38,807 nt of DNA from Candidatus Babelota bacterium (GTDB lineage Bacteria > Babelota > Babeliae > Babelales > GCA-2401785). The position numbers and the translations under genes are program-made. Positions 8,640 through 11,607 of the stretch are shown here, in pieces (position 1 is the first letter of the stretch; each line of letters starts with the position of its first letter). The notes under the pieces are model-generated. The model was not told where the DNA came from. It saw only the letters and a program-made list of their open reading frames with translations, and searched no databases. The stretch is from NCBI GenBank assembly GCA_042576345.1, contig JBHPCE010000002.1, positions 1-38,807 on the forward strand, in the 5' to 3' direction.

Positions 8640-10145
8640 TTACTTAAGTCCGGCTACAGGATGCCCACAGATAGGACACGGAACATTTTCATCCTTTACC
8701 CCCCCTTCATATATTCTAACAGTACACTCATCACAAACCCAACCCCTACAAGGTTTCCCGTTTACTCCATCACAAAACTGCTGAACAACTATACAATCCT
8801 GGGGCTTCGCCATACACACAACACATGTATGTCCATCATCTGCCTCCTCAGCGGAAATTTCTTGCCACTTCCCTTTTTTCTCTACTTTCGGTCTCAAGGA
8901 TTTAACGGACACAACCAATTTTTGAAACTCAAGCACTTGTCTTTCCAAAAATTTAATCTTATTCTGTGCGTTCGCGGCGTTCTCGTCCAAAAGAACAAAA
9001 TCTCTTACATGTGGATACAAAGCATCAACGATTTTTCCATTTATCAATTGCTGTATTCCTGAATAATCTTTGCCGGCTATCTCTTCCGAAATCCATTGTG
9101 GATAATCGCAACATTGAAATTCTTTAAAATAAAGTGCATGAATATGATCTACAGGGTATCCACCTAGTCCGACTATATTTAAGTAAGATAAGCACTCTTC
9201 CAAAAAAGAAACCGTTTTCAAAGTTTCTGTTATCGCAAGCTGGTCCACTGGCCTATACCCCCCACCGACAACAACATTAGCACCACTTCTCAAAGATCCA
9301 AGATACTGTTGCATGTTAGTCATAATATTTAAACGTATATCTCTATCTATTGATTCTCTAATTTCTTTAGACTTTTCTCTCAACCATCTTAGCCGTTCTT
9401 CCATATGTTTTGTCTGGTCCTCATGAGATTCGACACCCGAACCACATAATCGTACTGGAAAGTCTTCAAACTGATCGGCAATATCTTTCTCTAAAGCTTC
9501 ACACTTACCTAGCAACTCGTCTAACTTCTTACGCTCTCTTTCTTCCTCGACCTCTACCTTCTTCTTTTGCAGCCATTTTAGATGTTCCTTTAAGCGCCGG
9601 ACTTGCTCCGCACAGTCCTCTTCAGTAGAATCATCCGTTAGAACATCTCCATGTACAAGGCCAATCTCTTTTTCTAAATTTCTACAATCTTTAACCAACT
9701 TATCCAAATTTTTCTTGTCACTAGCCCATCTGTTTCTCATTGTTGTAAATTCATTAGACAAGTAAACCGCCCCAAAAACTGCAGAGAAAAAGGCGCTCAA
9801 ACGAACACCCCAGGCCAATACCCTTCCAAACTGACTAATCTTAACTTTTCTGGAAACACTTTCCTCACCCTCTTTTCCAGGAAACTGTCGTAGCTTCTTG
9901 TTTCCTGTTAAAAGAAAAATACAATATTCTTTTAAGCTTAAACCGCCATGTGTACGGGAGTTTGCAGATGCATATCCACCAATAAAAAAAGCCACACTCG
10001 TAATTACACAATAGCGCGAAAACTCTCCAGATCTTTTTGAGAACTCCTCAATCCTATTTCTAAAAAAGTCACTCGCACCAACAAAATACGGAAATAAAAG
10101 GAGAACAAAAGATAATAAAATTTTTTTGCTAAAAAATAACTTCAA
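8640..10145 (-). CDS. Membrane-anchored coiled-coil protein with C-terminal Cys-rich RING-like zinc finger
   Basis: TTG start with GGAG 7 nt upstream. Signal-like N-terminus plus two hydrophobic segments. Duplicated coiled-coil module. The last 61 aa are CVVC-x6-C-x6-C-x7-C-x4-CDEC-x15-CPIC. Confidence 0.75.
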   Translation of the reverse strand: MKLFFSKKILLSFVLLLFPYFVGASDFFRNRIEEFSKRSGEFSRYCVITSVAFFIGGYASANSRTHGGLSLKEYCIFLLTGNKKLRQFPGKEGEESVSRKVKISQFGRVLAWGVRLSAFFSAVFGAVYLSNEFTTMRNRWASDKKNLDKLVKDCRNLEKEIGLVHGDVLTDDSTEEDCAEQVRRLKEHLKWLQKKKVEVEEERERKKLDELLGKCEALEKDIADQFEDFPVRLCGSGVESHEDQTKHMEERLRWLREKSKEIRESIDRDIRLNIMTNMQQYLGSLRSGANVVVGGGYRPVDQLAITETLKTVSFLEECLSYLNIVGLGGYPVDHIHALYFKEFQCCDYPQWISEEIAGKDYSGIQQLINGKIVDALYPHVRDFVLLDENAANAQNKIKFLERQVLEFQKLVVSVKSLRPKVEKKGKWQEISAEEADDGHTCVVCMAKPQDCIVVQQFCDGVNGKPCRGWVCDECTVRIYEGGVKDENVPCPICGHPVAGLK

Positions 10146-10230
10146 AACAATACTCCATTACCAAAAACAACATATAAAAATATATCAAAAAAAGTAGAAT
10201 TTGCAAATCATTGCACAAAAACGATTAAAT

Positions 10231-10258
10231 TTGACAAAAAGACACTTGCATGTAAAAT
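10231..10258 (+). promoter_or_regulatory. Sigma70-like promoter for the macrodomain gene
   Basis: TTGACA (10231-10236), 16-nt spacer, TAAAAT (10253-10258). Bracketed by the 8-bp inverted repeat GACACTTG/CAAGTGTC (10241-10248 / 10266-10273). Confidence 0.5.
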
Positions 10259-10302
10259 AAATATACAAGTGTCCCCTTATTCACCAAAATTGATTTTTTA
10301 TA

Positions 10303-11607
10303 GTGAAAATTATGAAACAAAAAAAAATTATAGCCCTCATTATCTTCAATTTAACAAGCTCAATTGCGCTAAAATCCCCCTTGTACAGCATTAATACTAG
10401 CCATACGAATTTGTCATCTGAACACGCAAAATTAAGAGCGCAAATCAAAAAATCAATCAAAAGAGCCATTATCAAAGAAAATATTAACGCTAAAGAACTT
10501 CTACTGGAGCAATACAAACAATTTTTGAAAAAAAACGGATTTGAAGACAAATTAATCTACGAACTTTCAAAGTCCTTACTTAAAGAGGCTGAAGACGCCG
10601 TTTTTAACCAAAAATTTCTAAACTATGTGCTGATAGCCGCAGCTGGAACGGCGATTCTTGCGACAACCTGGTATTTAAAAACGAATACACCTCCCCCAAG
10701 ACGAGATAAATCTCTTCTGGCCAAACCTCAGGAAAAGCACGTAGCTACAAGGCCCCCACTCAAAACCCAGCATAGGCAAGCACCTTCTAAAAAGGTACAA
10801 AGTCCTGACGACCATTCCAAACAAATGAAAGCTCGAAAACCCTCTGGTCTAGCACAGAAAGCATGGCCACAGATGATTGCGACATACTCACTAGGGCGAC
10901 ACGTGATAAAAGTTGTGCAAGGCTGCATTACAAGGGCATTTCATGAGGAAGATGGCAGTGGAGGACCACAAAAAGGAGATTTTTTTGTGAATGCCGCAAA
11001 CAATTCACTTGCAGATGGCTCGGCAGTTTGTGGCGCCATTTTCGATGCCGCCGGAAATAGAACAATGCAACAAGCATGTGATGAAGCTCGCCCAGATAAG
11101 ATCATGGGACTACAAGAAGCCTCACATAGTTCACATAGAGGCATTAGATGCAAAACAGGTGACGCTGTGTTAGCTGGAAAAATTGAAGATGGACGCGTAA
11201 TTCATGGAGTCGCACCAAACAAATGGTGGTGGCAAAAAAATTTGAAAATGGCTGTAGAAAAACTAAAAAGCACCGTTTCAAAAACCTTAGATATCGCAAA
11301 AAGTAAAGCTTCAGAGGTAGAATCAACAACAATTCGCGTAGCAGTGCCTGCAATTTCTACGGGAATTTTTACACCAAGCACCCTCCATGGCAAAAACGGT
11401 GACGCTGCTAAAGCTGAGGTTGTCAGTATAATTACCAAAGAAATTAAGAGCTGGTTTGCAAAGCAACAAACATTTCCAAAACCTATGGAGTTGCGATTTG
11501 TTGGTTTCGACGCCAAAGCCTCCAAATGGTGGACAGATGCCCTTGATGCATGGACTGGAGAACCGAAAAGCCAGCTCCATCGTATTAAACAGCAAGTATC
11601 CCGATAG
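10303..11607 (+). CDS. Membrane-anchored macrodomain protein (ADP-ribose binding/hydrolase fold, divergent)
   Basis: Macro motifs FFVNAANNSLADGSAVCGAIFDAAG and RVAVPAISTGIF. N-terminal signal-like segment, one TM (YVLIAAAGTAILATTWYL) and a Pro/basic linker. The start is either GTG 10303 or ATG 10312. Confidence 0.8.
   Translation: MKIMKQKKIIALIIFNLTSSIALKSPLYSINTSHTNLSSEHAKLRAQIKKSIKRAIIKENINAKELLLEQYKQFLKKNGFEDKLIYELSKSLLKEAEDAVFNQKFLNYVLIAAAGTAILATTWYLKTNTPPPRRDKSLLAKPQEKHVATRPPLKTQHRQAPSKKVQSPDDHSKQMKARKPSGLAQKAWPQMIATYSLGRHVIKVVQGCITRAFHEEDGSGGPQKGDFFVNAANNSLADGSAVCGAIFDAAGNRTMQQACDEARPDKIMGLQEASHSSHRGIRCKTGDAVLAGKIEDGRVIHGVAPNKWWWQKNLKMAVEKLKSTVSKTLDIAKSKASEVESTTIRVAVPAISTGIFTPSTLHGKNGDAAKAEVVSIITKEIKSWFAKQQTFPKPMELRFVGFDAKASKWWTDALDAWTGEPKSQLHRIKQQVSR

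Follow-up and report, generated by a model that had tools for sequence, protein, structure and literature searches.

Positions 1–38,807 of contig JBHPCE010000002.1 of Candidatus Babelota bacterium (assembly GCA_042576345.1), referred to here as the window, carry two adjacent genes, A and B, that are transcribed away from each other and fill a lineage-specific insertion between the genes SpoIID and YdjM. Protein A ends in what is probably a RING-type zinc finger and protein B contains a macrodomain, each preceded by a signal-like N terminus and a second, transmembrane (TM)-like hydrophobic segment. We tentatively favor the view that the two are independent, host-directed accessory proteins with eukaryote-type domains, held in a lineage-specific islet of Dependentiae; judged from sequence, this is possible and falls somewhat short of probable. 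The features of the locus are the following.

8638–11702, no strand: lineage-specific insertion of about 3.1 kb between SpoIID (7408–8637) and YdjM (11703–12233), holding exactly genes A and B
8640–10145, minus strand: gene A, 501-residue orphan protein with a signal-like N terminus, a TM segment, a coiled-coil/helical region and a C-terminal RING-like finger
10146–10302, no strand: divergent intergenic region of 157 bp with back-to-back sigma-70-like promoter sites
10303–11607, plus strand: gene B, 434-residue protein with a signal-like N terminus, a TM segment, a Pro/Lys-rich linker and a macrodomain

Gene structure and orphan status of the pair

An earlier reading of the same DNA (the original prediction) had described a divergent pair with these coordinates around a 157-bp spacer, and every detail of it that we checked was correct. 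Gene A has a TTG start with GGAG 7 nucleotides upstream, and its stop codon lies 2 bp from that of SpoIID. For gene B, the database call places the start three codons downstream at ATG 10312, giving 431 residues. The spacer contains one promoter-like site for each direction, recognized as consensus matches only: TTGACA-16-TAAAAT at 10231–10258 on the plus strand (11 of 12 consensus positions) and TTGCAA-16-TATATT at 10206–10179 on the minus strand (9 of 12, TG-extended), the two standing back to back about 25 bp apart. The arrangement suggests two unrelated orphan genes that would be transcribed from back-to-back promoters, set between the housekeeping genes SpoIID and YdjM.

The orphan status proposed earlier for both genes was upheld, by an exhaustive search for A and by a word-indexed search for B that gave one distant macrodomain match. 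Protein A retrieved only itself from a word-indexed search of 5.8 billion proteins, had no homolog in an exhaustive phmmer scan of 1.84 billion cluster representatives and had none in viral or metagenome contigs. The word-indexed search with protein B returned itself and P0003 only (35% identity over the macro core), and viral and metagenome contigs held no relative of it. In tblastn of both proteins against 84 loci, the only matches were to the two contigs that encode P0003, and there were none in Dependentiae loci. P0003 is a 288-residue protein (L003, 5484–6350; L004, 1770–2636) encoded beside holin, CHAP endolysin and HNH genes in a phage- or prophage-like context, which hints at a phage-borne macrodomain subfamily; it has the same GVCGAIF loop as protein B, with intact MacroD motifs.

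A PADLOC search yielded coiled-coil matches only for protein A (LmuB, 1.1e-6, and JetC), none for protein B and no partner defense genes. Membership in a defense system was rejected, the LmuB and JetC matches being confined to the coiled coil, and we judge the resemblance to LmuB (SMC-like) and the weaker JetC/MukB-like matches to be coiled-coil similarity and not homology.

A lineage-specific insertion between SpoIID and YdjM

The genes that flank the pair are housekeeping genes, with HflX, GAPDH, tRNA-Met, a CT398/CdsZ-like protein, RNase H and SpoIID upstream and YdjM, TatD and HU downstream, and the block CT398-like, RNase H, SpoIID, YdjM, TatD, HU is conserved across Dependentiae. YdjM directly follows SpoIID in nine related loci (the P0005 and P0006 contigs, L001, L002, L005, L006, L009, L011 and L013), the two genes being separated by about 4 to 465 bp, or overlapping (−28 bp) in L002, and the pair is therefore a lineage-specific insertion of about 3 kb. 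The GC content of the insertion and that at third codon positions (GC3) are typical for the contig, with no compositional deviation, and it has no bracketing repeats, no integrase or transposase and no adjacent tRNA, the sole tRNA of the window lying at 6073–6147. We conclude that the insertion is not recent and shows no sign of mobility, and an origin as a mobile element found no support.

At the same junction of L008 (metagenome-assembled genome (MAG) contig CAYQJQ010000002.1, 6880–12055) lies a different cargo of 5.2 kb, composed of a signal-peptide FKBP-type isomerase (9798–10217, minus strand) and signal-peptide orphans of about 200 residues that form two paralog pairs (42 and 33% identity). 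The SpoIID–YdjM junction looks like a recurrent slot for lineage-specific genes in Dependentiae, mostly genes for secreted proteins. The neighboring YdjM–TatD junction is also variable: the two genes overlap in the window, the P0006 contig (JGI 3300072015) has a 997-residue Lon-like AAA protease between them, and L006, L009, L011 and L013 have inserts of 0.7–2 kb. Beyond HU, synteny with the relatives (SbcC-like, FtsW) is lost.

Homologs of the SpoIID protein are named Candidatus Dependentiae, Candidatus Babeliales or candidate division TM6, and the nearest is just 55% identical. A scan of GTDB species representatives with SpoIID, in which a single-sequence query found no loci and an alignment-based query did, gave Dependentiae MAGs as the best loci, at no more than 42% identity. 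From these distant identities the window belongs to a poorly sampled Dependentiae lineage. An origin in Chlamydiota, prompted by a weak CdsZ/CT398 match together with SpoIID, was ruled out, as the SpoIID homologs and the syntenic loci are those of Dependentiae. Members of this phylum, also known as TM6, are obligate intracellular parasites or symbionts of protists, and their proteomes contain many signal-peptide orphans and eukaryote-type interaction domains (PMC6561590, PMC4776705).

The C terminus of protein A resembles a RING finger

8643–8831, minus strand: A residues 439–501, RING-like zinc finger (Pfam zf-C3HC4_3, shuffles, own profile)

The original prediction had placed a nine-cysteine RING-like finger at the end of protein A; the count and position of the cysteines hold, and the RING identity is tentative, the profile match being sub-threshold but non-random. 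The cysteines are residues 441, 444, 451, 458, 466, 471, 474, 490 and 493 (8667–8825), accompanied by His439 and His495. The proposed zinc ligands are Cys441/Cys444, Cys458/Cys466, Cys471/Cys474 and Cys490/Cys493, leaving Cys451 spare and aligned with a non-ligand Cys of MDM2. The spacing is 7 between ligands 3 and 4 and 4 between ligands 4 and 5, and none of the ligands is His.

The profile PF13920 (zf-C3HC4_3, the MDM2/IAP class) matches the 75-residue end of protein A at 21.8 bits (E of 1.6e-4) over model positions 2–47 of 49, and in phmmer against the Protein Data Bank (PDB) the MDM2 RING aligned across the whole segment with an E value of about 0.3. When the finger was shuffled with Cys and His fixed, none of 9 shuffles matched any RING family. 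With a profile of our own, made from approximate sequences of 11 MDM2/IAP-class RINGs, the finger scored 16.0 bits, compared with maxima of 13.3 bits among 2000 Cys/His-fixed shuffles and 9.5 bits among 2000 full shuffles. Because the real finger outscores the Cys/His-fixed shuffles, residues other than the ligands contribute to the match (CVVCM, KPQDCIVV, VCDEC, CPIC). Just 0.055% of shuffles of the 76-residue end fit a relaxed RING pattern, a rarity that places the Cys arrangement beyond what composition alone gives. Two hallmarks of E2 contact are present, Val443 (CVVC, CxVC type) and Pro491 (CPIC, CPxC type). Zinc-ribbon, UBZ, PHD and B-box families were far worse than RING in Pfam or unmatched, with E values of at least 6 for zinc ribbons.

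We regard a RING-type fold as probable for the end of protein A, as a prediction from these comparisons. The finger would be a two-zinc RING of the MDM2/IAP/MUL1 class with Cys at all ligand positions and an insertion between ligands 3 and 4.

Protein B contains a divergent macrodomain

10888–11562, plus strand: B residues 196–420, complete but divergent MacroD-like macrodomain (Pfam Macro, PDB matches, alignment)
10990–11055, plus strand: B residues 230–251, catalytic/distal-ribose loop NAANNSLADGSAVCGAIFDAAG, strict motif failed
11347–11370, plus strand: B residues 349–356, diphosphate-binding loop PAISTGIF, strict motif failed

The macrodomain announced for protein B is firm. Pfam Macro (PF01661, cut-off of 22) matches the whole protein at 44.0 bits (residues 229–357) and the domain alone at 48.6 bits (9.6e-13), and both loops listed above are present. 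The best PDB matches are of the MacroD type, led by Oceanobacillus MacroD (5lcc, E of 4.9e-4) and followed by YmdB and MacroD1. In an alignment with P0003 and five reference macrodomains, the sequences of the latter being approximate, protein B has the full core (GCIT as the counterpart of GDIT, VNAAN, HxVxP, PxISTGIF and the terminal strand and helix) together with four insertions.

The strict MacroD hydrolase motifs were taken as Nx6GG[VLI] and G[VIA][YF]G, as defined in PMC10951314. The catalytic loop of protein B reads N-NSLADG-SA-V, with SA where GG is expected, whereas P0003 (NEGLQAGGGV) passes; of the 7 aligned macrodomains, all but that of protein B have Gly before the Val. Its diphosphate loop reads GIFT, followed by a 6-residue insertion, where P0003 has GIFG. 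The MacroD Asp is replaced by Cys, also found in P0003, and the His by Phe. Alphavirus nsP3 macrodomains, which are active, carry this same Cys, and an approximate alphavirus macrodomain sequence also lacks the final Gly of the diphosphate-loop motif, so that GIFT need not mean a loss of activity. With the Cys shared by P0003 and by active nsP3 macrodomains, protein B is likely to bind ADP-ribose. Hydrolase activity is uncertain, and a role as a reader of ADP-ribose rather than a remover is plausible.

The altered loops bear on whether the two genes are functional at all, since they could be debris or very young orphans, a decaying or unselected acquisition from a protist host, a giant virus or a phage. 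Neither signature motif survives in protein B, whereas P0003, its nearest relative, retains both, the ligand spacing of the finger in protein A is irregular, and the collections searched held no homolog of A and only the distant P0003 for B. Set against this, a reduced genome has two long reading frames here (501 and 434 codons), both intact, their GC and GC3 are host-like, the promoters are plausible, gene A has its GGAG ribosome-binding site, and neither the macro core residues nor any of the eight putative zinc ligands has been lost. We think debris very unlikely.

Membrane topology and site of action

10062–10145, minus strand: A residues 1–28, Sec-type signal-peptide-like segment, MKLFFSKK / ILLSFVLLLFPYFV / GA↓SD (Kyte-Doolittle maximum 1.92)
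9759–9821, minus strand: A residues 109–129, second hydrophobic, TM-like segment VLAWGVRLSAFFSAVFGAVYL (Kyte-Doolittle 1.69 over 19 residues)
9270–9758, minus strand: A residues ~130–292, E/K/R/L-rich, coiled-coil-like helical region, from composition
8856–9269, minus strand: A residues ~293–430, helical region, possibly substrate-binding, with secondary structure from a low-confidence model
10615–10671, plus strand: B residues 105–123, second hydrophobic, TM-like segment (Kyte-Doolittle 1.48)
10672–10887, plus strand: B residues 124–195, Pro/Lys/Gln-rich linker, probably disordered (14.7% Pro, 14.7% Lys)

Both proteins start with signal-like and TM-like segments, followed by a coiled coil in A and a Pro/basic linker in B, as the original prediction had it. 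The n, h and c regions of protein A and its VGA↓S cleavage site were read off the sequence. The corresponding segment of protein B is MKIMKQKK-IIALIIFNLTSSIA↓L, with a hydrophobic stretch at residues 9–27, and its TM-like segment is followed by KTNTPPPRRDK, whose positive charges, also read off the sequence, mark the cis side. The two N-terminal modules gave a BLASTP E value of 0.67 against each other, and a shared delivery module was rejected. A low-confidence AlphaFold2 (AF2) model of protein A has long helices at residues 104–168, 175–198, 202–226 and 241–292; the coiled-coil region has matches of the coiled-coil type only (LmuB, JetC, HlyD). Neither residues ~293–430 of A nor residues 124–195 of B have a Pfam match.

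If the proteins are directed to the host, protein A would recruit host E2~ubiquitin and act as a membrane-tethered mimic of an E3 ligase, with its coiled-coil/helical region providing oligomerization or substrate binding. On host proteins, protein B would bind mono-ADP-ribose, which it might also remove, thereby blunting or reading host ADP-ribosylation signaling. A host-directed effector pair had been one suggestion of the original prediction; the host-directed part fits the intracellular lifestyle of Dependentiae, and the part that makes the two a pair is unsupported.

Several observations weigh against host direction or against the domain functions that it presumes. The main problem is topology: with a cleaved signal peptide and one stop-transfer segment, both C-terminal domains are predicted to stay in the bacterial cytoplasm, which has no ubiquitin system. 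With PF13920 the finger scores 21.8 bits, short of the gathering score of 27, and protein A as a whole scores 15.7 bits. The finger fails the canonical RING expression, C-x2-C-x(9-39)-C-x(1-3)-H-x(2-3)-C-x2-C-x(4-48)-C-x2-C, and passes the relaxed one, and there is no linchpin Arg or Lys after the last Cys, the position being Gly494. The AF2 models, run from single sequences because there are no homologs to align, are of low confidence (predicted local distance difference test score, pLDDT, of 40.9 for the full length and 48.2 for the 82-residue domain), and Foldseek against the PDB with these low-confidence models gave no match at E < 6. Protein B fails both strict MacroD motifs. Finally, the secretion described for Dependentiae comprises Sec and type II only (PMC6561590, PMC4776705), so that it is not apparent how the proteins would reach the host cytosol. 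They could conceivably be exported in full and then inserted into a host membrane, because the second hydrophobic segments are only moderately hydrophobic (1.69 and 1.48). The alternative of a bacterial surface module, also raised in the original prediction, conflicts with the simplest predicted topology.

The same topology is the chief argument for a second explanation, in which both proteins act inside the bacterium, anchored in the inner membrane with their C-terminal domains facing the cytoplasm. Protein B would then act as an (ADP-ribosyl)hydrolase in housekeeping or stress, deacetylate O-acetyl-ADP-ribose or sense ADP-ribose, and the Cys-rich end of protein A would be a generic zinc-binding regulatory or interaction domain and not an E3. 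By the simplest topology, and by the positive charges after the TM segment of B, the C-terminal domains lie on the cytoplasmic (cis) side; enzymes of the MacroD/YmdB type are common in the bacterial cytoplasm; and the RING call is sub-threshold, its fold being a prediction. However, the sole full-length profile match of the end of protein A is to a eukaryote-type RING class and depends on non-Cys residues, zinc-ribbon families stay at E values of at least 6, housekeeping genes are unlikely to be singletons missing from every relative, and no E1, E2 or ubiquitin-like (Ubl) genes lie nearby. We consider action inside the bacterium unlikely but a serious rival, and retain host direction as the favored, tentative reading.

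Relation between the two proteins

The original prediction had gone further and joined the two proteins in a ubiquitin/ADP-ribose module, with the DTX3L-PARP9 heterodimer and Legionella SidE effectors as analogies. In its full form, which also draws on RNF146 and the SidE/MavL logic, this model has one co-regulated and co-anchored module coupling ubiquitin transfer to the recognition or removal of ADP-ribose. Its basis is adjacency, and we found no DTC domain, no ADP-ribosyltransferase and no conservation. The genes do lie side by side and diverge, and about 25 bp separates their back-to-back promoters; both are missing from every relative, so that they possibly arrived together in one insertion of about 3 kb; and they encode a parallel architecture of signal-like segment, ~80-residue spacer, TM segment, linker and C-terminal domain. 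The degenerate macrodomain motifs would fit a reader role, and RING domains combined with ADP-ribose readers are a recurrent combination in eukaryotes.

The proposed check of co-occurrence and conserved divergent synteny came out negative: neither gene is present in any relative, the nine syntenic loci are without the insertion, and with no second genome carrying the pair there is no co-occurrence signal. The analogies fare no better, as Pfam detected no DTC, WWE, PARP/ADP-ribosyltransferase (ART) or phosphodiesterase domain in or next to either protein, and no SidE-like domain; for DTC, WWE and PARP this held in both proteins even at E values up to 10. The N-terminal modules of A and B are not homologous, and the slot holds unrelated secreted genes in another lineage, so that adjacency may be incidental. 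The pair resembles DTX3L-PARP9, RNF146 and Deltex in having a RING and an ADP-ribose-binding module, but the DTC (or WWE) domain that stands beside the RING in those systems and the PARP catalytic domain are absent here, and the functions sit on separate, non-conserved, membrane-anchored polypeptides. A functional module of this kind is, in our estimate, improbable.

Least likely of all is a more specific version, in which the genes were acquired together as a split membrane-tethered device whose macrodomain would read mono-ADP-ribosylated host or bacterial-surface proteins and whose RING E3 would ubiquitinate those proteins or their ADP-ribose. If true, bacteria would have reinvented the RNF146/Deltex logic with two polypeptides, and would have done so in a phylum without known effector translocation.

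Comparison with known systems

The layout of protein A resembles that of eukaryotic membrane E3s such as MUL1, which has two membrane segments and a C-terminal RING of the MDM2/IAP class. As in IAPs, MDM2 and MUL1, the finger of protein A lies at the extreme C terminus, and like RINGs of this class (PF13920) it carries CxVC and CPxC motifs. It differs from them in having no His ligand, a spacing of 7 instead of 1–4 between ligands 3 and 4 and no basic linchpin, and in having 15 residues before the last CxxC pair, where MDM2 has ~10–11.

Among bacteria, Simkania negevensis has SneRING (SNE_A12920), an active RING E3 with atypical ligands, and a second RING family, SNE_A08700, in which a large insertion after ligand 3 lowers the profile scores (PMC12591485). 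Both share with protein A a zinc RING-like finger with atypical ligands in an obligate intracellular bacterium that infects amoebae; the SNE_A08700 family also shares the added residues behind ligand 3 and the lowered profile scores, and SneRING is associated with host or vacuolar membranes, a likeness to the membrane tether of A. There is no sequence homology between these proteins and A. SneRING carries its finger at the N terminus, ahead of an alpha/beta domain, and neither a signal peptide nor a TM segment has been described for it, whereas the finger of A is at the extreme C terminus after a signal-like segment, a TM segment and a coiled coil. Moreover, SneRING belongs to Chlamydiota, which have type III secretion, whereas A comes from Dependentiae and its E3 activity is only predicted. 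RING/U-box families, including the NEX1b family, occur in Neochlamydia as well (PMC4209131).

Protein B agrees with the MacroD type (Escherichia coli YmdB, human MacroD1/2, Oceanobacillus MacroD) in its best Pfam and PDB matches and its complete core, and departs from it in Nx6SAV, GIFT, the replacements of Asp by Cys and His by Phe and the four insertions. MacroD-type proteins are small soluble enzymes, whereas the macrodomain of B is fused to a signal-like segment, a TM segment and a Pro/Lys linker. Legionella MavL and Larg1 are macrodomain effectors that act on ADP-ribosylation made by the host or by other effectors, and MavL ties the erasure of ADP-ribose to ubiquitin (PMC10951314). Like B, they are macrodomain proteins of an intracellular bacterium of amoebae, but they belong to the Arg-specific DUF4804 class without MacroD motifs, whereas profile matches make B MacroD-like; both effectors are substrates of Dot/Icm, a system not known in Dependentiae; and no SidE-like or Ceg3-like writer is present here.

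Proteins A and B are thus sequence-unrelated additions to known RING/U-box mimics and macrodomain effectors, and the strategy itself is known. In a limited literature search, we found no bacterial description of a signal-like segment, a TM segment, a coiled coil and a C-terminal MDM2/IAP-class finger in one protein. In the cited genome analyses of Dependentiae, the emphasis is on ankyrin, F-box, WD40, LRR and TPR proteins, with no mention of RING or macrodomain proteins (PMC6561590, PMC4776705).

Other features of the window

The tRNA-Met (CAT, 6073–6147) lies between GAPDH and the CT398/CdsZ-like open reading frame (ORF) and overlaps the mechanical GTG start of the latter (6136), whose real start is probably an ATG near 6169. 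The tandem 288-residue ORFs at 635–2461 were considered as paralogs and are not paralogous. A ten-gene polysaccharide biosynthesis cluster occupies 19829–31227 on the minus strand, with several GT4 glycosyltransferases, a Wzx-type flippase, a UDP-glucose 6-dehydrogenase, an AsnB-type amidotransferase and an NDP-sugar dehydratase/epimerase; its presence stands out in that Dependentiae are described as having a degenerate cell envelope. Near the contig end, 35669–37255 encodes a HerA/DUF87-type ATPase (PADLOC HerA, 2e-35; NCBIfam HerA matches), followed by a small signal-peptide ORF and then peptidyl-tRNA hydrolase, with no partner nuclease or sirtuin recognized.

Small ORFs with signal-peptide-like N termini are found at 13870–14298, 19400–19798, 31317–31742, 34230–34703, 34849–35541 and 37349–37909. 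Three of them (13870–14298, 19400–19798 and 34849–35541) were scanned and gave no significant Pfam match. These ORFs are consistent with the signal-peptide-rich orphan proteomes reported for Dependentiae.

Implications for Dependentiae

RING activity in protein A, even if true, would be a new example of a known strategy, and the finding would become conceptually new only if coupling between the two proteins were demonstrated. Dependentiae are widespread and almost uncultured. So far, Legionella and chlamydia-like bacteria are where the two themes of RING and macrodomain effectors have been worked out; if the predictions are true, protein A as a zinc RING-type ligase mimic and protein B as a macrodomain protein would extend both to this phylum. 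Proteins A and B are concrete, clonable candidates for biochemistry, and in other Dependentiae genomes the SpoIID–YdjM junction is a practical place to look for host-interaction genes.

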